A stretch of 63,032 nt of DNA, counting the filler, from Hausera hauseri (Eukaryota), in assembly GCA_046269625.1 (NCBI GenBank). It is 10 parts of 10 records of this genome, joined end to end, with 100 filler letters (N's around TTAATTAATTAA, not from the genome) between each part and the next. Parts side by side here need not be neighbours in the genome. Positions count along the whole stretch, not along the records: positions 11,682 to 21,799 come from JBJURY010236628.1; 9 more parts are not named here. One strand, written 5' to 3'. Positions 11,576 through 41,298 of this stretch are shown one piece after another; within the stretch, counting starts at the first letter, position 1, and each line of letters begins with the position of its first letter. Position numbers and translations under genes: made by a program. The notes beneath the pieces were generated by a model, which was not told the origin of the DNA, made no database searches, and was given only the letters and a program-made list of their open reading frames with translations.

Positions 11576-12140
11576 AATTTCNNNNNNNNNNNNNNNNNNN
11601 NNNNNNNNNNNNNNNNNNNNNNNNNTTAATTAATTAANNNNNNNNNNNNNNNNNNNNNNNNNNNNNNNNNNNNNNNNNNNNGCTTTGTGCTTATTTTTGC
11701 TACTATCAGCTTCTTCTGCTATTTTAGCTACTATTAAGCTGTTTTATGCTAATTTCAGCTTTTTCAGATACTTCCAACTGTATTTTGCTTCTTTCTGCTA
11801 TTTCAGAGAAGATTCAGCTGTTTTTAGCTAATTCTTGAACAAATGGCATTCACACATGCATTTTCACAGGAAATGAAATTTTCTCTAGTTATTATTTAAT
11901 TTTAATTTTTTAAATTAAGCATCTATGAGAATTTAGTAGCGCTCTGGTATTGTTTCGGTCAAGACTTTGAGTCAAGAACAAACACTGTTTAAAGAGGTTT
12001 GCATCTCCCCCTGACCCAAACCCCCAACCCCCCGGTGGCCGAACCTACTACTCGCACATATATTAATAAACACAACGTAGAACATCATAGTTTTATTTAG
12101 GGAAAAAACATAAATTCTATAAAATCTATTACCTTTAACA

Positions 12141-13523
12141 ATGGGCACATCTCAGAGTAAAAATACTCCTTTAGAAGGAGATGAAAAGTTTATGTCACAG
12201 AAACATCCAGACAGCTTGAAATACGCAAATAAATGGAACAAGGAAGGAGTGAAGTGCACTCTGAAAGTACAAACATGGCAGAGTTTAATATGTAAACTCG
12301 AGGCGGAGAAAGAAAAAACAAAAGGAAAGAAAGACAGAGAAAAGTTGAACAGTGAGATAGAACAGGCGAAAATCTGGTTAAACGAAGCGAAAAACCGGAG
12401 AGGACAAATTGAAAAGTCAAAAGAGCGAAAACGGGCCAACGCCCTGTTACTCAAATCAGAAGACAATGAAACCCCAGCCAGACCCCCTTCTGGGGCAAAA
12501 CCAAAACCAACCCAAACCTCCTCCTCCTCCTACAACTTAAGAGACACAGCTAAAAGAAATTTAGAAGGGGCCATGGGGGAAGACGAGCCCCATTCAGGTG
12601 AAAAAGAACAGAAAAAGGGCCAGGGAAGCATCTACCCCCTCATAGAGGTGGCCAATCCTATTCCAAAGAACGACACAGACCTAACCACCTATGTCTTCCG
12701 CCCCTGGACCCTGACCGAGGCCCAAGCCGCTGTGCAGGGTGTGACCCCACCCCAAGCTGACCCAGAACAATGGATAGTTGACATGCAGGGTGTGATACAA
12801 TCTTATAGATTAAATGCCCACGAAGCCGGTCAGGCTATACAGTCTAGCTTGGGAAAAGACTGGGCCAGAGTTAGAGGTAATTACTCGGGTCGAAACCAGC
12901 TGGGAGAGGTCTTCCCTTATGATTTGTCGAAACTAGATGGGATGGGGATAGCATATAAGGCCGAATGGGTAGCTCTGTGCACGAGGGTAAGAGAAACGTT
13001 TAAAAAGCGCCCAAATTATGCCGAATTAGAAGCCGTAAAACAAAAACCCGGAGAAAGCTGTGAAGATTTTAGGCATCGGTATGAAGTGGCTTTTAAAGTA
13101 CATAGCGGCATCCCCATGGAAGATGGAGACGCATCCACCTACCAACAACAACTAAAACAGGGCATTATGAGAGGACTCCACACCCACATAGCTCAGTGGG
13201 TGACAAAACATTATGTTAATCTGCCGACTTCCTCATTAGCCGAAACTATGAATTGGGTGAGGCACGCAGAACAATTGAAGAAAAATAATAAAGGAGGTGT
13301 TTTTTATGCCACAATGCCTTATCGGGGACCACGCGGGCGAGGACGCGGCCGCATTAGACGGGGTGGGAGAGGCCGACAGGATTACCTAGGAAAAGGCCCA
13401 GATAGACAAAACTTCGCACAAAAGATTTATGGGGGCGACGGATGTTGGATTTGTGGTGACATGGATCATTGGAGTAGAGAATGTCCGAATAACACGAGTG
13501 GACTGAATGAAAAACAGGCGTGA
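12141..13523 (+). CDS. gag: Retroviral Gag
   Basis: Myristoylation start MGTSQS, IYPLI late-domain-like motif, major homology region VKQKPGESCEDFRHRY, RG-rich tract, single CCHC knuckle CWICGDMDHWSREC. Confidence 0.95.
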   Translation: MGTSQSKNTPLEGDEKFMSQKHPDSLKYANKWNKEGVKCTLKVQTWQSLICKLEAEKEKTKGKKDREKLNSEIEQAKIWLNEAKNRRGQIEKSKERKRANALLLKSEDNETPARPPSGAKPKPTQTSSSSYNLRDTAKRNLEGAMGEDEPHSGEKEQKKGQGSIYPLIEVANPIPKNDTDLTTYVFRPWTLTEAQAAVQGVTPPQADPEQWIVDMQGVIQSYRLNAHEAGQAIQSSLGKDWARVRGNYSGRNQLGEVFPYDLSKLDGMGIAYKAEWVALCTRVRETFKKRPNYAELEAVKQKPGESCEDFRHRYEVAFKVHSGIPMEDGDASTYQQQLKQGIMRGLHTHIAQWVTKHYVNLPTSSLAETMNWVRHAEQLKKNNKGGVFYATMPYRGPRGRGRGRIRRGGRGRQDYLGKGPDRQNFAQKIYGGDGCWICGDMDHWSRECPNNTSGLNEKQA

Positions 13524-14489
13524 CTAGGCGTGGCCGACACTGAAAACCCACAACACCCGAATCTAGATGATCCACGTGACATAGTAAACGTATATTCAGC
13601 TTGGGATTTGTTAAATGCATTAAAAGAAAAACCCTACGTGACCCTTAAGGTCAACGAACAAAATGTTGAATTTTTATGTGACACAGGGGCCTGTAGAACC
13701 GTGTTGAGAGACACGGTCAAAGGACTTGTTGAATCTAACGCCTACCTGTGGGTGCACTCAGCTGATGGACAGACTAATAAAGAGCCCCTCTCAAAACCCA
13801 CGCGCTTTGAGGACCCAGAGTCAGGAAAAGTTGTTTATGCTTCCATAGTTATTTCTCCTAAGTGTCCCGTTAACCTTCTGGGCCGAGACTTGATGCAAAA
13901 GTTGCATTTGGGAATTGTCCCAACACAAAAAGGGATGAAAGTCATGAGACAGGGGGAAGGGGTGTTCCTGACAAACACCCAACTTGACTCATATGCGTCT
14001 CTTGATATCCTCCCACATGACCAGGCTAATTTACACATTACAGCTGACCTGATGAAAGAAGCAAAAGCAACCCTATCTAACCTGGAAGATGAACAGTTTT
14101 GGGACAAATTACATGTTACCCTAGCCCTATTCTCTTCAGATGATGACCAGGGGATCCCTGAGAAGGTTTCACTCCTGGCACCGGTCACACTGGCCATTGA
14201 GTGGATGTACACTGACAGGTGCTCATTCACAGCAGCCACGGTTCTATTGCCCTCGATGGCGCAAGACTTGTTTTGTTTAAATGCGACCTCTGTACCACAT
14301 GTGAGTTTAATCAAGGCACACAGAAATAGTTGGAAAGATACTGGACCCAGGTTGAGAGTGGCACAAGCTTGCATTGATTTTTTCCCCACAGAAAACTCTG
14401 CCTGGTTTTACAGCCCCAGCTGCGGACTTTGGAAAAGACCTGAGACGTACTTGTTGCTAGCAAAACCCCGACTCCACCCCCTGGCATGA
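13524..14489 (+). CDS. pro: Retropepsin protease fused to a 2H phosphoesterase domain, in frame with gag after a UGA
   Basis: FLCDTGA (Asp at 13680) and NLLGRDL, then two HxT/S motifs, LHVTL (14112) and PHVSL (14298), followed by WKDTG. Confidence 0.92.
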   Translation, partial: LGVADTENPQHPNLDDPRDIVNVYSAWDLLNALKEKPYVTLKVNEQNVEFLCDTGACRTVLRDTVKGLVESNAYLWVHSADGQTNKEPLSKPTRFEDPESGKVVYASIVISPKCPVNLLGRDLMQKLHLGIVPTQKGMKVMRQGEGVFLTNTQLDSYASLDILPHDQANLHITADLMKEAKATLSNLEDEQFWDKLHVTLALFSSDDDQGIPEKVSLLAPVTLAIEWMYTDRCSFTAATVLLPSMAQDLFCLNATSVPHVSLIKAHRNSWKDTGPRLRVAQACIDFFPTENSAWFYSPSCGLWKRPETYLLLAKPRLHPLA

Positions 14490-17400
14490 CAATCAGTGGC
14501 CCTACTTTCAGAGGACGATGAGACCCTTATTGCAGGTCTCCCTGAGACCCTTTGGTCCCAGGGACCCTCTGATGTAGGGCTATTAAATAGCATACCTCCA
14601 GTTAGAATAACACCAAAAGGTCCATACCGTCCAAATGTAAAACAATACCCTTTGAAGCCAAACGCAGAAATAGGAGTAGAACCTGTGGTGCGAGACCTGC
14701 TTACAGCAGGCATCATCATCCCTTGCACCACCTCCCCCTGTAACACGCCCATCTTTCCTGTACCAAAGGCAAACAATCTGTCCTGGAGGATGGTCCAAGA
14801 CTTACGCGCAGTAAATCAGGCTGTGGTGTCTCGGGCCCCTAATGTCCCTGACCCACACACTTTGCTGAACTCAGTTGAATCAGGTTCACAATGGTTCTCC
14901 GTTATAGATTTGAGCAATGCGTTTTTCTCAGTTCCTCTACATGAGGATTCGCAGTTTTGGTTTGCCTTTACATACAGAAATAAAAAATACACTTATACCC
15001 GTCTTCCTCAGGGGTTCACAGACAGCCCCACTATATTCACGCAAGCTATCACCAGTTGCTTACAAAATTTTCAACCCAAGTCCAGCCAACTTTTGATCTA
15101 TGTAGATGATTTGCTTTTGTGTTCAAAAACGAGAGCTGACTGTGAGTCAGACACGCTCTCTCTGCTTCATTATTTAGCAGAAACAGGAAACAAAGTCACT
15201 AAAGAAAAAATGCAGTTGGTCAAACAGGAAGTCACATATTTGGGTCAGAGCATTTCAGCTGAAGGCAGACGAGTACACACAGACAGAAAGCACACCATTA
15301 CAAATGCACCACAACCCCAAACAAAAAAACAGATGATGCAATTCCTGGGTTTGTGCAACTACTGCAGGGCGTGGATTCCAGATTATGCTGGAGTCACACA
15401 GCCCCTCTTGGACATGATCTATTTTAAACCAATGGCAATGTCTGAAATGATCACATGGACTCCTGTTGGAGAAAAAGCTTTTACAGATCTGAAACAACTC
15501 CTTATACAAAGTACGACTTTGCTGTTGCCAGACTACAAGAAAAGTTTTGTCCAAATGGTAGATTGTAAAGACGGTTTCATGGTATCAGTTTTGCTACAAG
15601 CGCATGGAGGTAAAAACAAACCCTTGGCGTTCTACTCTAAGAGGTTAGATCCAGTTGCTAGAGCACTACCTCCATGTGTACAGGCAGTGTGTGCTGCTGC
15701 GCTAGCGGTAGAAGCCTCAGCGGACGTCGTGCTGTTTCACCCGACTATGTTAATGGTCCCGCATGCGGTTGATGTGCTGTTGTTACAAAGCAGGCTTACA
15801 TCACTCTCACCAGCCAGACAAATAACCTACACAGCGCTGCTCCTTTCTCAGCCCCACATCACCATTCAGCGCTGCAATGTGCTGAATCCAGCAACCTTGC
15901 TCCCATGCCCCACAGAAGGCAAACCACATAGTTGCATAGAGCAGGCTGAAGCCCTGCAACTGCCCAGACCGGATCTCTCTGACACACCCCTTACTGAAGG
16001 CGAAACTTGGTTTGTTGATGGCTCTTGTTCAAAAGCCCCAGATGGAAAGAATCTTTCAGGTTTTGCAGTAGTGAAACTACCAAACACGATTTTATGTGCA
16101 CAACAACTACCCGCCCATTACTCAGCACAAGCTGCTGAAATACTGGCACTTACTGCGGCCTGCGACATGGGCAAGAATAAAATTATTACTGTCTACACAG
16201 ATAGCCAGTATGCATTCTCAACACTATTTTATTTTGCTAAGCAGTGGGAGAGGCGAGGCATGACAACATCTACAGGAAAACCTGTCACACATGCACAACT
16301 GCTGACAAATCTATTAGAAAAAGCACAACTTCCGGAAAAACTTGCGGTTTGTAAATGTACGGCACACACCCGAGGCACAGACTCAGTGACAAGAGGTAAT
16401 GCTTTTGCTGATGAAATAGCGAAACAGGCAGCTGCAGGACAACACGACAGAGGACATTTTCTTGCACAGACAGACAACTTCATAAATGAGGAAGTGTTGT
16501 TTTCAGCACAAGACAATGCACCACATGCTGAAAAACAATCATGGCTCCTTAGGGGAGCTACTAAAACCGACAAATGGATGCTGAATGAAAAACCCATCCT
16601 GCCTAAATCCCTATTCAGAGCAGCTGCCCTAGCGACACATGGACTATGTCATGTTTCGACAGGAGGAATGATTAAGATAATACAGGACCACTTTTTCACT
16701 ATAGGTTTAGAGGCTTACTTGAAACAATTTTGCAAACAGTGTACAATATGCATTAAACACAATCCACAAGGAAACATGAGACCTAAAAGAGGAGCATTTC
16801 CAAAACCACAATACCCATTTCAAAACATGCACATGGACTTCATCGAACTAAACCAGAGTGGGCCATACAAGTACTGTTTAGTGATGGTGGACGCATTCTC
16901 TAAATGGGTAGAAATAGTACCGACAACAAAACCAGATGCTATCTCCGTGGCTAAAGCTATCTGTAAAAACATCATCCCAACACATGGGGTCCCAGAAATA
17001 CTGTACTCAGACAATGGCACACACTTTGTAAATGAAGTAATTCAAACAATGGCCGACCATCTGAAAATAAAGTTGAAAAACCACTGTGCCTACCACCCAC
17101 AAAGCGCAGGCCTTGTGGAAAGAATGAATGGAACAGTAAAAAGTCGTTTGAAAAAATGCATTGAAGAGACAGGTAGGCCCTGGCCAGAATGTCTAGATCT
17201 GGTCAAACTCTATATGAGAATCACTCCAACAACAGCAGGCCCAACGCCTTATGAGATCCTATATGGAAAGCCATATAGACTTCCAATATTTGACTTAGAC
17301 AAAGCAGAGGAAGAAAACACGCTGGCAGACTACATGGTACAAACAATGAAACTGAAAGAAGTTCAGTATGCAAATTTACTGCCGCATGATTCTCTTCCTC

Positions 17401-17591
17401 CACAGGCAGTGACCGTGTCCCCGGGAGATTGGGTGTTCATCAAGGTGATAAAGAAGAAAACCTGGAACAGCCCACGCTGGGAGGGACCATACCAAGTTCT
17501 GCTGGCCACCCCCACGGCAGTGAAGGTGGCAGAGAGAACATCTTGGATCCATCTCAGTCACTGTAAGTTGCAAAAGGTGCTCGATCCCTAA
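14490..17591 (+). CDS. pol: Pol: reverse transcriptase, RNase H and integrase, in frame after a second UGA
   Basis: WRMVQDLRAVN, IDLSNAFFS, LPQGF, YVDD (15099). RNase H WFVDGS, SAQAAE, YTDSQYA. Integrase H-H-C-C, MDF, SDNGTHF, GLVERMN, WEGPY. Confidence 0.97.
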   Translation, partial: QSVALLSEDDETLIAGLPETLWSQGPSDVGLLNSIPPVRITPKGPYRPNVKQYPLKPNAEIGVEPVVRDLLTAGIIIPCTTSPCNTPIFPVPKANNLSWRMVQDLRAVNQAVVSRAPNVPDPHTLLNSVESGSQWFSVIDLSNAFFSVPLHEDSQFWFAFTYRNKKYTYTRLPQGFTDSPTIFTQAITSCLQNFQPKSSQLLIYVDDLLLCSKTRADCESDTLSLLHYLAETGNKVTKEKMQLVKQEVTYLGQSISAEGRRVHTDRKHTITNAPQPQTKKQMMQFLGLCNYCRAWIPDYAGVTQPLLDMIYFKPMAMSEMITWTPVGEKAFTDLKQLLIQSTTLLLPDYKKSFVQMVDCKDGFMVSVLLQAHGGKNKPLAFYSKRLDPVARALPPCVQAVCAAALAVEASADVVLFHPTMLMVPHAVDVLLLQSRLTSLSPARQITYTALLLSQPHITIQRCNVLNPATLLPCPTEGKPHSCIEQAEALQLPRPDLSDTPLTEGETWFVDGSCSKAPDGKNLSGFAVVKLPNTILCAQQLPAHYSAQAAEILALTAACDMGKNKIITVYTDSQYAFSTLFYFAKQWERRGMTTSTGKPVTHAQLLTNLLEKAQLPEKLAVCKCTAHTRGTDSVTRGNAFADEIAKQAAAGQHDRGHFLAQTDNFINEEVLFSAQDNAPHAEKQSWLLRGATKTDKWMLNEKPILPKSLFRAAALATHGLCHVSTGGMIKIIQDHFFTIGLEAYLKQFCKQCTICIKHNPQGNMRPKRGAFPKPQYPFQNMHMDFIELNQSGPYKYCLVMVDAFSKWVEIVPTTKPDAISVAKAICKNIIPTHGVPEILYSDNGTHFVNEVIQTMADHLKIKLKNHCAYHPQSAGLVERMNGTVKSRLKKCIEETGRPWPECLDLVKLYMRITPTTAGPTPYEILYGKPYRLPIFDLDKAEEENTLADYMVQTMKLKEVQYANLLPHDSLPPQAVTVSPGDWVFIKVIKKKTWNSPRWEGPYQVLLATPTAVKVAERTSWIHLSHCKLQKVLDP

Positions 17592-17787
17592 GGTGGAGTT
17601 GTGGTGAAAATCCTGGCTACAAAGGGGTTGTGAGCAATTTAGAGTCACTTCGTCTCAAACCAGGTGAAGAAACCAACAGATCCCTGCTCCATTTAGACCT
17701 TGGGGTAAGCGGTTTTGCAATTTAAGCAGCAATATCAGTCTCTAGTGAAGCCACTGAGAGCTGACCTACCTGTGTAGTGAACTGAGC

Positions 17788-19965
17788 ATGGAAATAACTA
17801 TGATTAGACTGATGGACAGGGCTCCAACCCGACCACCACCAGAAGAACCAGAAGATCCAGAACCAGAGGGGATGATGCCACAGTCGACATGGCAACAAGT
17901 CAAACAAAAAATACAAATGTGTCCCTGGTTTGATGGAATCCCTTGCTTTGTATATTTGCTAGCTTTCACTGTTGGAGCTGCAAGTATGTTTTTCATTACG
18001 TTTTGGTTTATCTATCCTGTTTTAGCAGGAAGACCCCCGTTTTCAAACCCCTGGAAGGTTGACAGCGTGGTCACCATAAGAAAAAGAGGGAATAATGGAC
18101 AACGAGCGGACAGAAATCATTTCAAATCTCATTGTACTGAGGGAAAACAAAATGTGACGGTGGTAAAGGGTGAGACCAGCACAATAATGTTAAATCCATG
18201 TGAATATTTTAATTGCCAGTCCCAATCCCATTTGGGTTGGGCTACCATATATGTCTGTTGGGTATGGAAAGTGGAAAACTGCCCCATATGTAGATCCTGG
18301 GCACAGGCTGCCTGGACCACCGCGACCACCGATTGGGGGTACACCTACCCGGATGACCCCACCCAGCTAAAGAACAGACTGTCCCTCTGGAAAGTAAATA
18401 ACACATCTCCAGTCGTTTTCTTGCGCCTGTCTAATACTACACAGGCCGATGAGGGGTATTTTATGGTCTGCGCTGAAGTGTCAGGAACAGACCCATGTGC
18501 ACCGTGGTGGTTACAAATAGTTGATAAAGAAACGCCCACACAACGTGTAACGCAGGTGTTCACAGCCCTCTCAGTTATAACATACCACCCCATGTCCCCA
18601 GACTCCCCAAGGGAGTATCAATGGGATCATAACCATCCAATGTTGACTGGAAATAGATGGTATTCAGTTCTTAGGCAATTAACCGCTGCAGGTGGTGTAA
18701 ACACATCATGTTATGCCTGTACCTTGTTCCCCAGAGACAACCTTGGGGCGATGCCTGTGAAACCACACCCGCTGACCAAGGAACAGGTAGCTTGCACCAT
18801 GATGGCATTAACCCCTCCTTTCCAGAGAACAGACAGCGTCTGGAATTTAACCAGGGCTAACTTAACAGGCCCATGCTCACAATTTAGCAATTTGACAATC
18901 AGAACCCCCAGTGGTCAGAAATTCAGAAATAAGGAAATGAACTTATTCGCGCCATTAGGCTCAGTTCACCCTAACCACGCTAATATCCAACACCCAGTTT
19001 GTATCACTAGAAAGGCTGTAGGACGTCGAGTTTTCTTAGGCCATGTGGGAGGTTGTCTTACAGTTTACTACGCCACTCGTGAGAAAACCCAAACCCAGGG
19101 TTTGAGTTCTGGCCGGGAAAGGTTAGTTAACTTGACTAATCTGCTGAATTTGACCTTTCTGGCAGAAGGTGTCTGGCCCTCGGATGAAGGTGCGGGGACC
19201 CTGAGGGACAGCCTGTGGCTGTGTGGAGACCATTATCACCAGGCCCTACCATCTCTCTGGGCAGGGACCTGTGCTCTGGTGGAACTGCGTCCAGCAGTGA
19301 CCCTCATGGATCAGCTGGTATATTCAACGCACCATTACCCTCATTTTCAGCCCCGCCAAGACGCTCTACAAAGAGAGAAAAGAGATGAGAAAGTTGTTAT
19401 TTCAGCAGATACAAAATTTTTGAGTGGCATTTTGCCCTGGTGGGGTACTGTTAATAATGCCCACCACATCGACAAGCTCCACATGGAATTAGAAAACTTA
19501 ACCTCCTTAGTCACAGATGGCTTTACTGCCCTCACACCTTACATAGCAGCTTCTCGGAACATGTTAACACAACACCAGATGGCTTTAGACTTGTTATTTG
19601 CCTCGCAAGGAGGCCTTTGCCACGTCATCGGTGACTCTTGCTGTACCTTCCTCCCCAACCCAACTGGAAATATGTCCGAAACCATCGCTCACCTAAATTC
19701 CCTTTTAGCTAAGATGAAGGAAGAGGAACTTGATGTCCCGCAAGGGTGGGATTGGTGGGCCTGGCTCACGGGCGGGGGGTGGAAAGCATGGGTGGCAAGG
19801 ATTTTAGTCCCCCTAGCAATTTTTCTTTTGTTGGTCTTGCTTTTCACATGTTGCATTGTGCCCGCCGTAAAAAAATGTATCAATTCGCTGTTTTCTAATC
19901 TCTTTTACCATCATATCCAGCAGTATGCTGTGGTGACTCAGGAAGACGACGGGCTTGAATCCTGA
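17788..19965 (+). CDS. env: Gamma-type Env glycoprotein with long leader and Ig-like N-terminal SU region
   Basis: Hydrophobic signal-anchor at about aa 52-80, CYAC (CxxC), furin site REKR (19372-19383), ISD-like QHQMALDLLFASQGGLC, CX6CC (CHVIGDSCC), Trp-rich membrane-proximal region, TM helix. Confidence 0.95.
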   Translation: MEITMIRLMDRAPTRPPPEEPEDPEPEGMMPQSTWQQVKQKIQMCPWFDGIPCFVYLLAFTVGAASMFFITFWFIYPVLAGRPPFSNPWKVDSVVTIRKRGNNGQRADRNHFKSHCTEGKQNVTVVKGETSTIMLNPCEYFNCQSQSHLGWATIYVCWVWKVENCPICRSWAQAAWTTATTDWGYTYPDDPTQLKNRLSLWKVNNTSPVVFLRLSNTTQADEGYFMVCAEVSGTDPCAPWWLQIVDKETPTQRVTQVFTALSVITYHPMSPDSPREYQWDHNHPMLTGNRWYSVLRQLTAAGGVNTSCYACTLFPRDNLGAMPVKPHPLTKEQVACTMMALTPPFQRTDSVWNLTRANLTGPCSQFSNLTIRTPSGQKFRNKEMNLFAPLGSVHPNHANIQHPVCITRKAVGRRVFLGHVGGCLTVYYATREKTQTQGLSSGRERLVNLTNLLNLTFLAEGVWPSDEGAGTLRDSLWLCGDHYHQALPSLWAGTCALVELRPAVTLMDQLVYSTHHYPHFQPRQDALQREKRDEKVVISADTKFLSGILPWWGTVNNAHHIDKLHMELENLTSLVTDGFTALTPYIAASRNMLTQHQMALDLLFASQGGLCHVIGDSCCTFLPNPTGNMSETIAHLNSLLAKMKEEELDVPQGWDWWAWLTGGGWKAWVARILVPLAIFLLLVLLFTCCIVPAVKKCINSLFSNLFYHHIQQYAVVTQEDDGLES

Positions 19966-20077
19966 GTCTAAACTTTAAAGCTGATTTTTTTGTAACTCTT
20001 ATTTTTTGGTTCTGGACTTTATTATTCCGATGTACAAATTCTATCGTCATAAGTTTGACTTTCCACAGTTAGAGCAC

Positions 20078-20091
20078 AAACAGGAGGGAAA
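20078..20091 (+). promoter_or_regulatory. Polypurine tract
   Basis: AAACAGGAGGGAAA immediately before the TG that starts the LTR. Confidence 0.8.
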
Positions 20092-20587
20092 TGTGAAAGT
20101 TATCTAAGCAAAGTTTTGTGCCTAACTGTGCAGCGAGCTGTTTTTATTTTGTTTGTTTGTTTTTTATCTACATAGCCTGACATACCAGAACAAGCTCTTC
20201 TTGCCCCCTCTACATATTTCCTTTTCTGCCCGAAACTAGACACACACCCCATTCCCTTTAGCCAATGTAGGAGTGATCAAAATGTTTCTTGTTCTTCTCA
20301 CGCAATGTGTTTTCAAATGTTATCCCCTCCCCTCAGCAACAGTAAAAGTAACTTCATGCTGATTGGAGGGTTCTGTCTTTGCACAATCTATGCACCTAAT
20401 AAATATGATCACGCAGCCTCACGAGGGCAGAGCTTCTTTGGATCTTGACTGCCATTAAGTTAAGTACAACGAACCTCTCCCTTTGCAAAGCGTATCATTT
20501 CAAAATCTCACTCTGCCTCCTTGCCTCTTTTGTTGGTTCACCTGGGTTGTTTGTTAATTTAATATTTTACAGAGAAAATATCCAACA
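20092..20587 (+). repeat. Retroviral LTR (496 bp, TG...CA)
   Basis: Bounded by the PPT and PBS. Begins TGTGAA, ends CCAACA. Contains CCAAT/ATTGG boxes and TAATAAAT at about 20397 (TATA versus polyA role ambiguous). Confidence 0.85.
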
Positions 20588-20591
20588 TTAA

Positions 20592-20609
20592 TGGTGCCGT
20601 GGCCCGGAT
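20592..20609 (+). promoter_or_regulatory. Primer binding site, tRNA-His
   Basis: TGGTGCCGTGGCCCGGAT matches 16/18 to the complement of the vertebrate tRNA-His 3' end (TGGTGCCGTGACTCGGAT). tRNA-His priming is known for epsilonretroviruses such as WDSV. Confidence 0.85.
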
Positions 20610-20889
20610 GGAATAGATCCTACACTGACGAGCGGAGGAAGACGCGTCGAACCCAGTGCACGGGCAGACCGTTGTGTCTGAAGTAAAGACCCGGAGGACT
20701 CCGTTTCTTCACAGGCCGACGTTGTAGGTCCGATCCCACCTGTCAGTGTTGGATTATCTCCATCCACACTGGGTGACAGGCAACGGCAGAGAGTGAGTAA
20801 AAGACACATAAAGATCTAGGGTTGAAAGTTATTGTACAAAAAACAAAACAAAACAAAAAAAAATAGAATAAAAACTACAGTTTAGAATA

Positions 20890-21070
20890 GCCACCCAGTC
20901 GTCGAACTGGTTCGTAAAAAGTGTCGTCGAACACAGTAAATAGGCCGTCGAGCCGCCCAGTCGTCGAACTGGTTCGTAAAGAGTGTCGTCGAACACAGAA
21001 AACAGGCCGTCGAGCCGCCCAGTCGTCGAACTGGTTTGTAAAGTGTGTCGTCGAACACACAGAAAACAGG
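20890..21070 (+). repeat. Three tandem 62-nt leader repeats built from CGTCGA-loop hairpins
   Basis: Units start at 20890, 20952 and 21014. Hairpins CCAGT-CGTCGA-ACTGG, GTGT-CGTCGA-ACAC and GGC-CGTCGA-GCC. Confidence 0.92.
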
Positions 21071-21279
21071 AAGGACGTCGTCCCTTTGATGAGTGAATGA
21101 GGAATGCATGGATGAGTGACGTGACCGAAAAATAATCATCATATTCACGCGGAAACCTGACGAGGTCAACAGAAAAGTACATTGATTTTTATTTTTAATT
21201 TTAACTTTTTATTTTATTTATTTTTATTATTTTTATTTTTTTGATTGATTTACTTTATTTATTTCTTTATTTATTTGAT

Positions 21280-21799
21280 TCTCCTATAATTTTTGTGCTA
21301 ATTTCAACTACTCATATGTCGACATGTTCAGCTCATTTAGGACAATTGTGCTATGACTTTTGGTAATGGTGCAACTTTAGTTATTTGAAATATTTAGCCA
21401 TTTCTGCCATTTTTAGCCCATTGAAAATGAATGGAGCTTATTTTACATCCTTTATATCTTTAGATCTATTTACAATATTTCACTACTCCTTTCTCATTTT
21501 GGAACAGCTCAGCTTCCTTCAGGTTCCTTCTAAATTTATTTAAAAACTTTCAGCTAATTTCAGCTATTTCTTCAACTGTTTTGTGCTCTTTTCAGTTTTA
21601 TTCAGCTTACTTCGACATTCTTGTACTTCTACTGACTTACTTCTGCTAAATTTCAGATCATTATGCTCCTTTCAGCTAATTTTTGAACGATTCAGATATT
21701 TCTGCTATTTCAGATTTTTTCGGCTTTGTGCTTATTTTTGCTACTATCAGCTTCTTCTGCTATTTTAGCTACTATTAAGCTGTTTTATGCTAATTTCAG
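21280..21799 (+). repeat. Degenerate T-rich minisatellite in the retroviral leader (continues at 11682-11840)
   Basis: Recurrent GCTA(A/T)TTTCAG / TTTTAGCT units. Confidence 0.65.
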
Positions 21800-29115: not shown

Positions 29116-32079
29116 CATGGACGCAACAAAAAGCAACAACAACAACAACAACATCCTCTCAGCAACAACAACAACAAGAACAAGAAAACGTCAAGCATCC
29201 ACAAGCCTGAACGAATACGCGCAAAGCGGCAGCAGCAACAGCAGTAACAACAGAAGGAGGAGGAGGAACCACTCATTACCGTCAAATACGACCTAAACAG
29301 ATCGTATGTGGACATGAATGTGGACATGTCCGCGAACACAAAAACACAATAGAGCCATGTCCCGTCGGGTGTGCGAAACCGACTGGAAGCTGAAGTGCGG
29401 AAATTCAAACACTGCAGAATGCAGTATTACGCACTTGAAAAATTTGAAAACGTGCAAGGTGCTAGGAAACAATGGTACCTGTCACATCGAGCTGTGCCCT
29501 ATTCAGAGGATTCTATTGGCGACTTAGGCGAAAAGCTTGACGAAAAAATCGTCATTTGTACGGAAAAAGGCATGTATATCATCCTCGGCTTTATTATAAC
29601 AAAGTCGGTTGACATAATTTACCTGTCCGAACGTACATTCTTACCGACACCTGAGGCTCTGAAACACTTACATGCGATAGTGAATGTGAAAAATACTGAT
29701 GATGAATACTGTTTTCTATACAATATTCTAGAAGTATTAAAATATAACAAAGTGTCCAGGCAACATGCAAATTGTCCAAGTAAGTATCGGCAGCATTTTT
29801 CGGAACTGAATTTCGATGAAAGCTGGATGCCAATGAAACTAAAAACAGTTGTAAGATTTGAAGGGCGCAATCCGACACTGGCAAACAACGTGTTCCGGTA
29901 CAACACAATAGCTGAAATACCGGCAGATGACGAGATATACAAAAATCCATATGTGAATATAATCTACCGCAGTCGAAACCTGAATGGACAACCAATATAT
30001 TTGTTGTTGTTGGAGCAGAAAGAAAAGTTTCATTACGCTGCAGTGACAAATCTAGGCAGACTGCTGAACATGGCACATGACCAGTTCATCAAAAAACGAA
30101 TAGAATATAAATGGTGTCCTGTATGCTTACACGGATTTAGGTCACAAACTACATGGGAAAAGCATGTGACACTGTGTAGACAACATTGCTTAGAAACAAC
30201 AATGTACGTCATGCCCGTCAAAAAAGCTTTAAAATTCAGTCACTGGTCAAAAACAGACAGTCCGGCATACGTCGTATAGGCCGATATCGAAGAAGTTCTA
30301 CCACAGCATAACGTGTGTGACCAGATGCATGTTTCAATCGCGTCAGAATGCTGGTTGTGCCTACTAAAGCCGAAGGACAACCACAATACTATGTTTTCCA
30401 CGAAGGGAATTGTGTACATGATTTCCTATATCAATTCAAAACTACAGTGGAAACGGAAATCGCGCCGTGGTATCGAAATAATAGCACTAAACCCTTGGTC
30501 TGGGCAGGCGAATATGAACCGCTGCTTTTTGCTACCACTGACAAATGTTACCTCTGACACCACAAAATATTGCCGTTCGATGCAGAGGAACGGCTCGTAC
30601 TGGACCATGATCATTTCACCGGTCGATACTTAAGAGCTGCGTGAAACGCATGCAATTTGGCAAGAAGGGTTCGGCCATTCCTGCCGATGATATTTTATAA
30701 TTTTCGAGGTTATGACTGTCACCATATTCTGAAATAAGCCGTCACCGAATTTCCACACTGGGAGCTATCCATAATCCCAACAACAATGGAGAAGGACCTG
30801 TCCCTATCGGTACACATAAACCGGTTTATGGTACGGTTTCTTGACTTATTGTAGTTCCTCAAAGAGTCTCTAGGAAAGCTCGTAAGTGCCTTGCTAGATG
30901 TGCCGATAACGCCGAAGCAGTTTCCTGCGCATATTGCACATAACAAAGGTATATTCCCATATGACTTTGCTGTGTCATACGAGCGGCTTCAAACAACAGA
31001 GGAATTGTCGCCACGATGGGCCGGAATTACAGAGGACAAGTACCACAGAGCACAGGAAGCGTGGACAGAGCTCTGCTGCAGAAACATGTTGGAGTACATG
31101 CTCCAGTACCTGAAACAGGACGTGTACTTGTTAGCCGATGTGTTTCAGACATTTCGTGCTAAGGCGTTGGTGGAAGATAGGCTGGAGCCGCTAAACTTTT
31201 ACTCCATACCGGGGACGAGTTGGGTATCGGCACTAATATCGCTGGACAAGAAAATTGGACTGTTGCAAGACCCGGAAATATACCGACTATTTGATGTTGG
31301 TATTTGTGGAGGCATGTCATTTGTCAACAAGCATCAGGTCCGTGCTACTGATACCCCATCACTGCTGTATATTGATATTAATAACATATATGGCTGGGCG
31401 CTTTTGCAACCCTTGCCGTACCGTTCATTCGAATGGATAATGGATAAACAAGAACTGGATACATTGCCGGACAGTCTGCCAACAGCAGGAAACACGACAG
31501 AAAGCAGCTTAGTCGGCTACCTAATGGAAATCGATCTTTTGGTACCAGATGAGCATGTTACCGGCAAATGTTCGACGGCTGTTAGATCAGTATCGTTGCC
31601 GGTGACACAGCCAGCTTTTTCCTTGAGCCGAAAAACGTCAATCGCGACCAACGGCTCCGGAAAATGATGACAGATGGACTACTGGACACGTCCAATTACA
31701 CACAGAATCATCCGCTGTATAGTAACGCCATCGTGAACAAAATCGGCTGCTTCAAGGATGAAAGCGAAGGCCGTGTTCAGTACCGAGAATGGATATTCCT
31801 GCGCCCAAAGTGCTACAGTCTTTTACGGACTGTGGACCAAAAATGCGAGCAAAAGGAGTCCAGCTGAGACAGCCGGAAATCGACCACGTTGATTATCGCC
31901 GTATCTATGAAGAAGGAGGACAATCAAAGGTTTTTGTATCTCAAACGATCATCCGATCGATTAAGCACCAGCTGTATACGGTAACGAATAAAAAAGTCGC
32001 TTTATCATGCAATGATGATAAGCGTAAGTGGATGAGGCGAAATAAGAGTTGGGCGTACGGTCATTGGCGTTTGGAATAA
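29116..32079 (+). pseudogene. polB: Polinton-type pPolB, disrupted, with an internal deletion removing motif B
   Basis: IVNVKNTDDEYCFLY, CPVCLHGF..HVTLC, DHDHFTGRYLRAA (EndoVII-like), FYNFRGYD, KGIFPYD, YIDINNIYGW, AGDTASFF, IGCFKDE, FLRPKCYS, KKVALSCNDDKR..AYGHW. Confidence 0.9.
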
Positions 32080-32369
32080 AATAACACGTTTAGTGATCAC
32101 AAATAGTTCAGTGCAAACATGCAGTTCAGTCCAGTTAGATCATTGACATTTGTGATCTTTATTTTACATTCATCTGCTGTACATGTTTTTTATATATGAT
32201 CAATAACGTATTTGTACACTAGTTTTTGTCTTCTGTTTTATAACAAGGAAATGGGGCTTAGTTGGGTTATCGAAAATAAATTAAAAATGTGATTTTAATC
32301 AAAAACTCACATACTTTCCATTATTAANNNNNNNNNNCTAACAACACCAAAAACCAAAAAGAATATGTG

Positions 32370-32800
32370 AAGTCAATCCATTAGGGTAAACTTCCCTAAC
32401 TTCCACATTGGCGATTTAATACCGCGTAGTTCTTATATCCTTTCAAGTTCATTGTCAAGTATCCTTTTACCCCTTCCGTTGGCAAAACTGTTTTTTGTCC
32501 ACTCGCATTAACAATTTTCGCCACGTTGCCTTTAAGGAAAAGCGAGGATGTGTCCCGAATACCATTGGACAACATCAAATCATTATCCACTTTCTTCATC
32601 GTTTCCTCCAATGCATCTAAGTTACTGTCACCGATTTTCTTTGCCAATAGGCCATATTTTACCTGCTTCATTTTTATCGGTGTTGATAATTGCACTAGAA
32701 TGGGGGTTCACAGGAAGTGTAGATTGTACCCGTTGTACATTCTAGACTGTCTGAGGGAATGCGGGCCGTACGTGGACTCACTGTTGCTTTCTAAATGCAT
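32370..32800 (-). pseudogene. Frameshifted paralog of the conserved ORF at 40861-41298
   Basis: MHLESNSESTYGPHSLRQSR / LSTPIKMKQVKY..KGYLTMNLKGYK aligns with the intact copy. Same convergent position after polB. Confidence 0.8.
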
Positions 32801-37552: not shown

Positions 37553-40500
37553 CGGGCGATCATTCATACCGACACCTGCAGCTCTGAAGCAGTCTCTGGC
37601 GGTAGTGAATATAAAAAATACTAACGACGAATACTGTTTTCTTTACAGTATTCTGCCGATACTGAAATATAACGAAATGGACAGATATAATGCATCTCGT
37701 CCAAAACATTATCAGAAATATTTTTCCGAATTGGATTTTGATGAAAGCTGGATGCCGGTGAAACTGAAATCCATTCCGACATTTGAATGGCGTAATCCGA
37801 CACTGATAATCAACGTGTTCCGGTACAACACAGTCGTAGGAATACCGGCGGATGAAGAAATTTACAAAAAACCCCCATGTGGATATAATCTACCGAAGTC
37901 GAAACCCAAATGGCTGCCCAATAAATTTGTTGTTACTGGAGCAAAAGGAAAAATTCCACTACATTGCAGAGACAAATCTGGACAGACTGTTGAACATGGG
38001 ACATGACCAGTTCATCGAAAAGTGAATACAATGTAATGGTGTCCCATGTGTCTGCACGGATTCAGATCAGCGACAAAATGGGAGAAACACATGACTCTGT
38101 GCAGACAAAATTCAACAGGAACAACCATGTACGTAATGCCACTCAAAAAGGGAGCTCCGATTCGGTGACTGGTCGAAAATGGACAGTCCGGCATATATTA
38201 TATATGTCGATATCGAAGTTATCTTACCACGGCAAAACATATATGACCAAAAAAATGTTCCAGTCGCCGTCGGTATGTTTTTTGTCCCAATAAAACCCGC
38301 AGGTCAACAGCAATATCATGTTTTTCATGGCTGGAACTGCGTACGCGATTTCCTGCATCAGTTGGAAACAATAGTAGAAACGGAAGTGGCACCCTGGTAC
38401 AATAGAAATAGCAATAAATCCTTGATATGGTCAGAAGAAGATGAACGCCTGACGTTTGCAATCACGGATGAATGTTATCTGTGCCACCACAAAATATTGC
38501 TCTTTGATGCAGAGAAACGGCTCGTACCGGATCATGATCATTTTACCGGTCGATATCTCGGAGCAGCATGCAATTTATGCATTTTGGCAAGAAGGGTTCG
38601 GCCATTCCTGTCGGTGATTTTTCATAACTTCCGGAGTTATGATTGTCACCATTTTTGAAATGGGTCATCAGTGAATTTTCGCACTGGGAGCTATCGATAA
38701 TCCCAACAACAATGAAGAACTACCTGTCCCTATCGGCGCGCATAAACCGGTTTCAGGTACGGTTTCTTGACTCATTGCAGTTCCTCATTGAGTCTCTAGG
38801 AAAGCTCGTAAGTGTCTTGCCGGATGTGCCGATAACGCTGACACAGTCCCCTGCGCATATTGCATGCAGCCAAGGCATATTTCCATATGACTTTGCTATG
38901 TCGTACGAGCGGCTTCAAACAACAGAGGAATTGCCTCCCCGATGAGCTGGAATCACAGAGGACGAGTATGATAGAGCACAAGAAGTGTGGACAGAGCTCG
39001 GCTGCAGAAACATGTTGGAGTACATGCTCCAGTATCTGAAACTGTACGTGTACTTCTTAGCTGACGTATTCCAAGCGTTTCGGGGTAAAGTGTTGGCGAA
39101 AGATGGGTTGGAACCGCTCAACTTTTACTCAATATCGGGAATGAGTTGGGCATCGGTACTAGAGTCACTTGATCGGGACATTGAGCTGCTGCAAGACGCA
39201 GAAATGTACCGCTTGCTTGACGGTGGCATTCGTGGCGGCATGACGTTTGTCAACAAGCATCACGTAACCAGTGATGATAACACATCAATGTTGTACATAG
39301 ACATTAATAACCTGTACGGCTGGCCGCTTTCGCAACCCTTGCCGTACGGCTCATTTGAATGGGTTGTCGAAAACCGAAATTGGATGCATTAATGGACAGT
39401 CTGACAGCAGCAGCAGCCGAAAACACGACAAAATTCAGCTCAGTCGGCTACCTGATGGAAGTTGATCTCACCGTTCCAGATGAGCTGCATGACGCTTTGG
39501 ACGAATTACCCTTGGCACGAATCAGCCATTGTCCACCCGGCGGCTCAACAAAAGTAAAGAAACTGCTCATGACGCATGAACCGAAGCTGAATTACGTGGT
39601 TTATTGGCGTCTGCTGCAGTTTTACATGCAGTTTGGTGTACGCGTCACACAGTTGTATTGTGCAATCCGCTTCAATCAGGCGCCGATATTACAGGCGTAC
39701 ATTGATGGAAATTCAGAAAAACGAGCCGCAGCTTGTGCAAAGTTCGAAAAGGACTATTACAAGTTGAAAAATAATTCTCTTTACGGCAAATTGATAGAGA
39801 ATTTCATGGAGCAGCTCAATGTGCGTCTGTGCAACAACGAAAAGCGGCTGGTTACGTACACAAGCAAGACTCAGTTCAGGCGGTCGTTGCACACTGCCGA
39901 CGGATTAGTCGCCGTGCTTCCCAACAGGGAAGAAGTAGTATTGGACCAGCCAAGCTACATCGGACAAGTAGTACTAAACTTGAGCAAGTTGCGCATGTAC
40001 GAGCTCCAGTATCGTGACTTGGCACGTTATCGGCAAATGTTCGGCGGCGACTGTGAGATCAGTATCGTTGCCACGAACATAGACAGCTTTTTCTTGCATC
40101 TGAAAAACATCGATCGGGACCAACTGCTCCGATAAATGATGGTAAATGGACTACTGAACACGTCCAACTACCCACCGGTTCATCCGCTGTACACCAGCGC
40201 GATAACAAACAAAATTGGCTGCTTCAAGGACGAATGCGAAGACCGGGTCCAGTACAGTAAATGGATATTTTTGCGCCCAAAGTGTTACAGTCTGCTGACG
40301 GACTGTGGGACGAAAATGCGGGCAAAAGACATTTGGCTGAAACAGACGGAAATAAATCACGGTGATTATCGCCGCGTTTGTGATGGACAAGAATACGGAG
40401 AAGATGGAGGAAAGGCTGTTTTCTCTCAAACGACTATACGATCGATTGAGCACAAGCTGTATATCATCACAAATAAAAAGGTTGCTTTGTCATGCAACGA

Positions 40501-40564
40501 TGAGAAGCGAAAGTGGGAGGGGCGAAATAAGAGTTGGACGTATGGACATTGGCGTATGAGGTAA
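37553..40564 (+). pseudogene. polB: Polinton-type pPolB, close paralog of 29116-32079, 5'-truncated by the contig edge
   Basis: IYVDIE, DHDHFTGRYLGAAC, FHNFRSYD, FLDSLQF, GGIRGG..YIDINNLYGW, YKLKNNSLYGK, TNIDSFF, IGCFKDE, FLRPKCYS. Confidence 0.92.
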
Positions 40565-40860
40565 CACACGCTCATTTCTCAGTAACAGAACAACAGTTCA
40601 GTCAGTACAAAGATGCAATTCAAATAAGTCAGCCAGGTCATTGACTTTTGTGACCTTTGTTTGTTTTACATTCATCTGCTGTACATGTGATCAATAACGT
40701 ATTTGTACACTAGCTTTTGTCTTCTGTTTTATAACAAGGAAATGAGGCTTAAGTTAGGTTATCGAAAAAAAACTCATATTACACCAAACCTCAAATACTT
40801 TTCACAACACAACATAACACAACACCAAAAGCTCAAATAAATTTTATTAGAAATAATAAA

Positions 40861-41298
40861 CTACAGTAAATTCGTTAGGGTAAACTTTTCCAATTTCCAC
40901 ATTGGCCATTTAATACCATACAGTTCCTTATATCCTTTTAGCTTCATTGTTACATATCCTTTTACCTCTTCCGTTGGCAAAACTGCTGTTTGTTTACATG
41001 CTGCACTCACAATTTTCGCTATGTTGCCTTTAATGAAAAGCAAGGATGCGTCCCGAATATCATTGGATAACATCAAATCACTGTCCACTTTCTTCATCGT
41101 TTCCTCAAATGCATTCCAGTCACTGTCAACTATTTTCCTTGCCAACAGATTATATTTTACCTGTTTCATTTTGATCGGTGTTGATAATTTCACTAGAATG
41201 GGGGTTCGCAGGAAATGACGATTGCACCCGTTATATACTCTGGACTGTCTGAGGGAATACGGGCCGTACTTAGACACACTGTTGCTTTCTAAATACAT
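40861..41298 (-). CDS. Conserved 145-aa Polinton-associated hypothetical protein convergent with polB
   Basis: Intact ORF from MYLESNS, conserved with the copy at 32370-32800. Confidence 0.7.
   Translation of the reverse strand: MYLESNSVSKYGPYSLRQSRVYNGCNRHFLRTPILVKLSTPIKMKQVKYNLLARKIVDSDWNAFEETMKKVDSDLMLSNDIRDASLLFIKGNIAKIVSAACKQTAVLPTEEVKGYVTMKLKGYKELYGIKWPMWKLEKFTLTNLL

Follow-up and report, generated by a model that had tools for sequence, protein, structure and literature searches.

Two in-frame UGA codons at the gag–pro border and the pro–pol border of a fish class I retrovirus suggest expression by double readthrough

Introduction

How is the polymerase of a retrovirus made when two stop codons stand in the single reading frame that leads to it? 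The translation strategy serves as a defining trait of retroviral groups, with one readthrough in class I, frameshifts in class II and splicing in the foamy viruses. An element in the DNA analysed here (the window: 63,032 nucleotides, filler included, in 10 joined parts from the Hausera hauseri assembly GCA_046269625.1) departs from the usual class I layout of one suppressible stop after gag followed by a continuous pro-pol, in that it has a second stop at 14487. Both stops are UGA codons in readthrough-type contexts, they lie at domain borders between intact genes, and the break between pro and pol recurs across the element's clade. It is likely that the two codons are read through in series, which would yield Gag, Gag-Pro-2H and Gag-Pro-2H-Pol.

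Organization of the element

The part of JBJURY010236628.1 at 11682–21799 carries an intact fish class I (gamma/epsilon-like) retrovirus. The ORF listing gives contiguous, same-frame ORFs at 12123–13523, 13524–14489 and 14490–17591, and an env ORF at 17758–19965. No further stop or frameshift appears in gag, pro-2H, pol or env in this listing of the window, in agreement with a preliminary description in which gag, pro-2H and pol shared one frame interrupted solely at 13521 and 14487, with no other lesion in gag, pol or env. The same description placed both stops at domain boundaries, and this is borne out by the Pfam matches (ORF1 ends in the zinc knuckle, ORF2 carries protease, and ORF3 carries RT, RNase H and integrase) and by the predicted 2H fold, the last strand of which ends 2 residues before stop 2. 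The features are as follows.

12141–13520, plus strand: gag, 460 codons counting from its first ATG, with a single CCHC zinc knuckle near the C-terminus
13521–13529, plus strand: stop 1, UGA with CUAGGC after it (leaky vertebrate context, type II), without predicted 3′ structure
13524–13970, plus strand: aspartic protease region, with a Pfam RVP match over residues 34–131 and active site CDTGA
13971–14486, plus strand: putative 2H phosphoesterase domain, with the two HxT/S motifs (H197/T199 and H259/S261) intact
14487–14495, plus strand: stop 2, UGA with CAAUCA after it (type I context, CAR-YYA)
14495–14584, plus strand: predicted extended stem-loop, a candidate readthrough stimulator, from folding
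14490–17591, plus strand: pol, 1033 codons, with RT, RNase H and integrase with an MLV-type C-terminal domain
17758–19965, plus strand: env ORF, gamma-type TLV_coat, first ATG at 17788, intact
20080–20091, plus strand: polypurine tract, from sequence
20092–20587, plus strand: single LTR, TG...CA, AATAAA at 20398, boundaries read by eye
20592–20609, plus strand: primer-binding-site-like sequence beginning TGG, which we take to be tRNA-His-like
20889–21070, plus strand: leader tandem repeat, 62 nt × 2.9, 3′ of the primer-binding-site-like sequence

The contig has one LTR and a 77-nt terminal repeat, and is read as a collapsed circle. The window contains PF00429 (gamma-type Env), PF18697 (MLV-type integrase C-terminal domain) and PF00098 (one CCHC knuckle), together with the class I trait of gag, pro and pol in a single frame, and its RT falls with those of fish class I retroviruses in the RT tree, where the named relatives are teleost gene models. 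The gag–pro border codon is UGA, in contrast to the UAG of the genus Epsilonretrovirus (WDSV and WEHV; the WDSV stop context is from the consulted extract of PMC13517186). No Epsilonretrovirus-type accessory ORF of at least 100 codons is present on the plus strand in the env-to-LTR gap or the leader.

The two stops and their contexts

The first junction reads GCG-TGA-CTA-GGC (13518–13529; TGA at 13521–13523) and the second GCA-TGA-CAA-TCA (14484–14495; TGA at 14487–14489). Given the base composition, the chance probability of CTAG following a stop is 0.0037 and that of CARYYA 0.0028; the product, 1e-5, overstates the case because both motifs were chosen post hoc from a short list. The vertebrate leaky context of the CUAGGC type is described in an extract of PMC13517186, which also gives >15% readthrough in HEK293T cells for contexts derived from CAAUUA and CUAGGC where these follow UGA.

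A distant relative, the metagenome locus L003 (41% identity to the window in Pro and 55% in RT), has both UGAs in frame, as TGA-CTAGAC and TGA-CAAACA. The type II context UGA-CUA(G) is thus found at stop 1 in both elements. The extended 3′ stem-loop of type II is not predicted at stop 1 when 120–150 nt are folded (z +1.0 in the window and −1.5 in L003). At stop 2, the CAR of the CAR-YYA signal proposed in the preliminary description is kept in both elements, but the YYA is not: CAA-UCA of the window fits, whereas CAA-ACA of L003 departs from it and fits the looser CAR-NBA readthrough motif quoted in PMC3159437. A −1 frameshift is ruled out at either junction of the window, the ORFs being contiguous in the same frame and no slippery heptamer being present.

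Assembly error is ruled out as the source of the stops. Contigs of runs X9 and X15 span both junctions, with no listed difference at the stops or their contexts (40 of 41 differences listed for X9; for X15, the stop-2 contig has all 17 listed and the stop-1 contig 19 of 20). Contigs of run X22 span neither junction, and run X4 has single differences on its junction contigs that are left out of the listed set. The X9 and X15 copies are approximately 1.6% diverged and have most differences in common, so this comparison shows that the stops are genuine and fixed within the family, but not that they are under selection. The pN/pS in pol is 0.24 against X9 (11 differences).

A clade-wide break between pro and pol

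Relatives of Pro-2H were taken from an unfiltered protein search (best 150 of 887) and relatives of Pol as the best 120 of 324, from 8000 scored candidates; an earlier length-filtered protein search was unable to show fused forms and hence was not used. Trees were built using FastTree, with SH-like supports. In the Pro-2H tree, the clade of the window comprises 62 sequences with a support of 1.0 among the matches listed; 58 of these end at the boundary, three end earlier and one at +16, and none runs into RT. Outside this clade, again among the matches listed, 51 of 59 run on into RT and two likewise end at the boundary. The boundary-ending proteins among these matches are 24–51% identical to that of the window. 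Across the matches listed, 81 of the 113 proteins that reach the second HxS motif end within −6 to +15 residues of the profile end (67 of 99 after removal of the profile seeds).

The RT tree (best 120 of 324) gives the complementary picture. No protease or 2H match lies upstream in any of the 47 clade proteins, 45 of which start at or inside the junction; outside the clade, 72 of 73 extend at least 36 residues upstream, 60 of them with a Pro/2H match. The Pro-2H and RT frames break at one point without overlap, which is what an in-frame stop predicts. Clade proteins display the break itself, stop versus frameshift and context being readable from DNA, and junction DNA was read for two distant lineages, the family of the window and L003. 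The preliminary description had named a sense codon at 14487–14489 in related copies as grounds for rejection; instead, the break recurs across the clade and L003 keeps both UGAs in frame. These sequences confirm stop 2 as, to all appearances, a clade-wide trait and not a private lesion. In the Xenopus protein P0314, which shares a cluster with the basal clade member P0285, protease and RT are fused without a stop, so the trait stops short of the RT clade's base. Separately, a further fixed break, the third, lies between RNase H and integrase in one subclade.

Among the control loci, 11 of 12 gamma-like loci caught by the motif pattern lack any stop from protease to RT, and so does L002, which is SSSV-like by its UGAAGA hexamer and has a 2H-like region between protease and RT. 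Searches of viral contigs returned no clade member, only one weak 51-residue match (L001), L002, and 26 loci at 25–37% identity that served as controls; the genome contigs gave 0 loci, and the 'longer' protein search gave two distant proteins. In the metagenome search, which found five loci, L003 is the sole clade member. L006 is placed in the fused sister clade of the RT tree, and L004, L005 and L007, all degraded, look similar to L006 by eye.

The 2H domain

The motifs and the predicted fold both identify the region before stop 2 as a putative 2H phosphoesterase. H197, T199, H259 and S261 are invariant in 16 of 16 aligned sequences. The best fold match of the model of residues 150–320 is 2xmi, a vertebrate CNPase (Z-score of 15.2 and r.m.s.d. 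of 3.7 over 162 aligned residues), the next 2H fold having a Z-score of 8.4, and Atlas features score 0.95 to the tRNA_lig_CPD cluster and 0.93 to the 2H-SAK cluster. A Foldseek search against the PDB returned only proteases among the best 50 matches listed.

The preliminary description had taken stop 2 to make 2H more abundant. This is less likely, since L003, a degraded copy, lacks the 2H domain and keeps both stops, which makes it more likely that the second stop uncouples protease from RT and integrase.

A predicted stem-loop after stop 2

Folding predicts a strong 3′ stem-loop at stop 2, a feature missed in the preliminary description. It begins 6 nt downstream of the stop and pairs 14495–14505 with 14574–14584 and 14508–14514 with 14566–14572 (−48.2 kcal/mol, z −4.76, 0 of 200 shuffles as strong). 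It ranks first among 194 sliding windows on a grid anchored on stop 2 and is matched by 0 of 300 synonymous shuffles. L003 retains 14 of the 18 pairs in register, four of them through changes on both sides; in the outer helix, 9 of 11 pairs are retained (P = 0.013). The covariation is equalled in 31 of 500 column shuffles. The helix lies outside the minimum-energy fold of L003 (pair probabilities of 0; −20.0 versus −26.5 kcal/mol).

Double readthrough and its alternatives

Under double readthrough, ribosomes would pass each UGA in turn, to give Gag, less Gag-Pro-2H and still less Gag-Pro-2H-Pol. A near-cognate tRNA would decode stop 1 with the CUAGGC context as sole help, and stop 2 with the help of the CAR context and the stem-loop; the viral protease may then release RT a few residues past stop 2. 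The purpose would be to set the amount of protease, plus 2H where present, separately from that of RT and integrase, an outcome that the beta- and deltaretroviruses attain through two frameshifts. As the Pol yield is the product of two rates (for illustration, 10% × 20% = 2%), an unusually high efficiency is required at one site or both.

It is improbable that Pol comes from a spliced RNA lacking stop 2, whether a pol message of the foamy-virus kind or the product of an in-frame splice from gag/pro to pol. A CAG lies at +5 to +7 after stop 2 in the window and L003, and the acceptor-like site of the window at 14496 has a pyrimidine fraction of 0.61, but that of L003 is only 0.28, and the best local acceptor of the window (14391, 0.78) is upstream of stop 2 and so would not bypass it. 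Pol has no AUG of its own before codon 101, its first Met being residue 101. The clade proteins P0174 and P0183 do join gag-like pieces to RT; the joins, however, fall at differing internal points, scrambled with env or integrase pieces, and resemble gene-model or deletion artefacts. Splicing would also leave the readthrough-type contexts and the kept frame unexplained.

Termination at stop 2 followed by reinitiation, or by internal initiation nearby, would give free Pol, and is very unlikely. An AUG overlaps stop 2 (AUGA at 14486) and codon 3 of pol is GUG, yet the overlapping AUG is ruled out as the pol start, being out of frame and closing after 11 codons, and the first codons in L003 include neither AUG nor GUG. 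Among the 47 clade proteins (best 120 of 324), 15 are called from a start at most 6 codons from the junction, a share of about one-third that we estimate to be near chance for ATG/GTG/TTG calling, and 10 begin only at approximately residue 100 or later. Pol is packaged by way of Gag in retroviruses, and free Pol would have no such route.

Scarcely credible is a recoding of UGA by other means, through A-to-I editing of the stop on RNA or selenocysteine insertion. Both stops are UGA and a long predicted duplex adjoins stop 2, but stop 2 itself lies outside that duplex, and both stops sit in domain-border linkers and not at catalytic positions; Rfam gives 0 matches at E ≤ 1 in 11682–21799 and so no SECIS-like element, which counts weakly. 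Finally, the idea that stop 2 is a nonsense mutation, the copy being dead or dependent on a helper, can be dismissed: endogenous retroviruses gather stops, and 9 of 121 Pro-2H tree proteins end early among the matches listed, but the boundary shared in both trees and the in-frame stop of L003 rule out a private mutation, and the pol behind stop 2 is open with a low pN/pS.

Implications

If double readthrough holds, the use of two readthrough sites by a class I clade would add a retroviral translation strategy, and the uncoupling of protease from RT and integrase would have been reached independently by another recoding mechanism. Intact and possibly active fish retroviruses would be scored as broken, or mis-annotated as split or spliced genes. 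The clade would also hold dozens of natural, selected readthrough cassettes for vertebrate cells, some necessarily efficient. The literature searched gave no description of a retrovirus with two readthrough stops, and the consulted part of a 2026 readthrough review gives few verified cases from animal viruses, with no fish retrovirus among them.

A wider reading, plausible but slightly more doubtful than probable, is that a large, still-intact teleost clade uses serial readthrough as a fourth retroviral strategy, which arose once from single-readthrough ancestors and pairs a vertebrate UGA-CUAG signal with a CAR signal of the plant-virus type plus stem-loop; in the subclade, the third break would then give four tiers, with integrase tuned apart from RT.

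Comparison with known systems

Stop 2 resembles the tobamovirus type I signal (stop-CAR-YYA) in reading CAA-UCA. It differs in that natural cases generally have UAG and reportedly require no structure, and in the CAA-ACA of L003. Outside plants, the insect virus Providence virus comes into consideration. It is given as type I in the extract of PMC3542737, whereas that of PMC13517186 states type I to be absent from animal viruses; neither extract names a retrovirus with this signal. CARYYA works after UGA too (PMC3542737, section 14).

The alphavirus type II signal combines UGA-CUA/CGG with an extended stem-loop, which in VEEV and CHIKV begins at +9 to +12 (PMC13517186, Table 1; PMC3542737, section 14). 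Stop 1 of the window shares the UGA-CUA and stop 2 the extended stem-loop with its starting position; alphaviruses have both at a single site, whereas in the window motif and structure are at different stops.

The closest solved fold to the modelled 2H domain, that of vertebrate CNPase, is 16% identical in sequence, and the domain of the window is embedded in a viral polyprotein. A 2H domain is known in fish retroviruses (PMC9503650, in part).

The SSSV/ZFERV group and the epsilonretroviruses are likewise fish class I viruses with gag-pro-pol in one frame, and SSSV and ZFERV have UGA at the gag border (PMC13517186, section 4.1.2). In these viruses there is a single stop, and Pro-2H-Pol is fused (1387 codons in L002), whereas the window adds an in-frame UGA before RT; their contexts are UGAAGA, UGACGA or UAG-R, against UGA-CUAG and UGA-CAR in the window.

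The beta- and deltaretroviruses (MMTV and HTLV) share the nested Gag, Gag-Pro and Gag-Pro-Pol products, with breaks at the identical two borders. Where betaretroviruses follow a −1/−1 frameshift pattern (PMC1224870, in part), the class I element of the window, free of slippery heptamers, keeps both junctions in frame and marks each with a stop.

Organization of the provirus

The retrovirus lies on one of the contigs that are strung together, with N spacers between them, in the window. This contig (11682–21799) has a 77-nt repeat at both termini, a single LTR copy, a polypurine tract and a primer-binding-site-like sequence, and we infer that it represents a provirus whose two near-identical LTRs were collapsed during assembly. 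As the preliminary description had it, gag, pro-2H and pol share a single frame that is split by two TGA codons.

Features of the proviral contig (domains from Pfam)
12123–13523, ORF1 (gag), same frame as ORF2 and ORF3, zinc knuckle
13521, stop 1 junction, GCG-TGA-CTA-GGC
13524–14489, ORF2 (pro-2H), same frame, protease; second half, 2H phosphoesterase
14487, stop 2 junction, GCA-TGA-CAA-TCA
14490–17591, ORF3 (pol), same frame, RT/RNase H/integrase
17758–19965, env, downstream of ORF3, gamma-type Env
about 20092–20587, LTR, single copy

If the contig is a circle, the leader (20592–21799 plus 11682–12140) spans approximately 1.6 kb; it carries a 62-nt tandem repeat (2.9 copies) and AT-rich degenerate repeats, and may in part be host repeat sequence. 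Two predicted RNA structures, ranked second and third (z of −3.6 and −3.2), lie in the integrase region upstream of env (17087–17326) and could be linked to env splicing. Unrelated to the retrovirus, 29636–32787 and 37561–41285, on separate contigs, share 75–85% identical blocks across approximately 3 kb.

The stops in other sequencing runs

Half or more of the words of the stretch are present in 22 of 24 listed runs (22 organism codes), the best of which may be the source of the window itself, and contigs of four runs (X4, X9, X15 and X22) were compared with the window. A single X9 contig crosses both junctions with 41 differences, of which 40 are listed, none at the stops or their contexts. 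X15 also covers both junctions (all 17 differences listed on one contig and 19 of 20 on the other), again with none at these sites, and the two runs bear out the stops as read. X4 covers both junctions with one unlisted difference on each junction contig; X22 covers neither. At a divergence of 1.6%, the comparison excludes error and a private lesion, and does not demonstrate selection on the stops. Over the 40 differences, pN/pS is 0.49 in gag, 0.30 in pro-2H and 0.24 in pol (small counts).

Conservation of stop 2

A profile of 16 Pro-2H sequences, applied with no length filter, gave 887 matches; with the best 150 listed, 113 of 162 proteins extend to the second HxS motif. Among these, 81 end between −6 and +15 residues from the profile end, 13 end earlier and 19 continue (67, 13 and 19 of 99 with seeds removed). 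The 59 boundary-ending proteins are 24–51% identical to that of the window. A Pro-2H tree of 121 domain-spanning sequences, taken from 282 scanned proteins, the window and the SSSV-like control locus L002, places the window in a clade of 62 (support 1.0), in which 58 members end at the boundary, 3 end earlier, 1 ends at +16 and none reaches RT; of the other 59 sequences, 51 continue, 6 are short and 2 end at the boundary.

The Pol side breaks at the same point. In an RT tree from the best 120 of 324 Pol matches, the window, the distant metagenome locus L003 and 47 proteins (50–67% identity) form a clade of 49 (support 0.993). Protease and 2H are absent ahead of RT in all 47; 45 begin at or within the junction and 2 bear gag-like pieces. 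Outside this clade, 72 of 73 reach farther upstream, and 60 of these match Pro/2H there. Contig ends may cut single proteins, yet would not align their ends. Since both frames break at one point without overlap, we infer an in-frame stop for most of the clade, whose named members are teleost gene models (for example Poecilia, Oryzias, Oreochromis, Gymnodraco and Syngnathus).

L003, the sole distant junction DNA obtained, is 41% (protease) and 55% (RT) identical to the window and degraded farther downstream. It has TGA-CTAGAC after gag and TGA-CAAACA ahead of pol, both in frame; both TGAs and the CTAG of the proposed contexts are kept, and CAAACA stands in place of CAATCA at stop 2. Its protease ORF (L003:835–1332, 165 codons) has no 2H domain, yet retains both UGA stops and contexts. 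The in-frame TGA of L003 and the 58 shared ends contradict the private nonsense mutation at stop 2 that had been named as refuting; judged from these sequences, the position of stop 2 is a clade trait. At its edge, Xenopus tropicalis P0314, a cluster mate of the basal protein P0285, has protease fused to RT, with neither 2H nor stop. The controls carry a single stop: in 11 of 12 gamma-like control loci caught by the motif pattern there is no stop from protease to RT, and L002 encodes a fused 1387-codon Pro-Pol, unlike the Pro-2H/pol break of the window.

Eight Pol proteins (P0176–P0179, P0181, P0187, P0190 and P0249; 60–80% mutual identity, one RT-tree neighbourhood) end at the column of window pol residues 698/699 (approximately 16581–16586), between the RNase H domain and the zinc finger of integrase, where the window is open. 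Five neighbours reaching this column continue past it, and 8 of 9 further members of the P0177 cluster end at the same residue. This third break is possibly a programmed stop or frameshift.

The 2H domain

The two HxT/S motifs are conserved without exception in the 16 aligned sequences. The structure model (pLDDT of 84.9), whose final 2H strand stops two residues short of stop 2, matches mouse CNPase (Z-score of 15.2 and r.m.s.d. of 3.7 over 162 residues). The fold of 13971–14486 is far nearer vertebrate CNPase than other 2H enzymes, viral 2-5A phosphodiesterases among them (Z-scores of 8.4 or less), and going by the model the domain may have been captured from host CNPase. The clade member P0014 has a Macro domain (PF01661) N-terminal to protease and 2H, and ends at the usual boundary.

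Candidate readthrough signals

The available sections of a 2026 review (PMC13517186) give UAG-CAR-YYA as the type I signal and UGA-CUA/CGG as the type II signal, and report at least about 1.3% readthrough for UGACUAG and >15% in HEK293T cells for CAAUUA- and CUAGGC-derived contexts after UGA. Stop 1 has exactly UGA-CUAGGC, with no predicted 3′ structure (z of +1.0). Stop 2 is followed from +9 (U of UGA being +1) by a predicted stem-loop (−48.2 kcal/mol, z of −4.76, 0 of 200 shuffles), which ranks first of 194 gag-pol-env windows on a grid anchored on stop 2 and is matched by 0 of 300 synonymous shuffles; 3′ structures of this kind are described as readthrough stimulators in the portions available of PMC3542737 and PMC3159437. 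In L003, 14 of 18 stem pairs hold in register (4 through double changes), a count well beyond that of slid registers, and 9 of 11 outer pairs are kept (P=0.013 against synonymous shuffles). Conservation of the helix is only suggestive, because it is missing from the best fold of L003 and its covariation is equalled in 31 of 500 column shuffles.

Expression of Pol

Serial readthrough of stop 1 and then stop 2 is probably the best reading of these sequences, and would give products of 460, 782 and 1816 residues. Pol yield would be the product of two rates, so stop 2 is predicted to be more efficient than stop 1. No slippery heptamer was found at either junction. Splicing is unlikely: the CAG downstream of stop 2 resembles an acceptor in both the window and L003, but that of L003 lacks a pyrimidine tract (pyrimidine fraction of 0.28). 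Reinitiation is less probable again, as the AUG that overlaps stop 2 lies in another frame, which closes after 11 codons, and the first Met in pol is residue 101, within RT. Editing or selenocysteine ranks slightly lower still, and a dead copy is highly improbable.

Because L003 has both stops without 2H, setting protease apart from RT and integrase is the likelier purpose. Of the raised protease and 2H output proposed earlier, the protease part is favoured over 2H as the driver; any surplus of 2H would be incidental or an added advantage.

Comparison with known systems

Double readthrough occurs in a plant carmovirus. The phrase itself is present in available parts of Drosophila papers. Full-text searches turned up no account of a retrovirus with two readthrough sites, a passing mention being possible in the original SSSV/ZFERV papers, Repbase/Dfam or subscription journals. 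PMC13517186 uses neither the term double readthrough nor second stop; its fish and amphibian retrovirus section has gag-border stops only, with readthrough termed unverified. The accessible portions of PMC8672886, PMC1224870, PMC5009743, PMC9503650 and PMC2684134 hold nothing on this layout. Double readthrough in general is already known. Beta- and deltaretroviruses also have three tiers of expression, but reach them through frameshifting.
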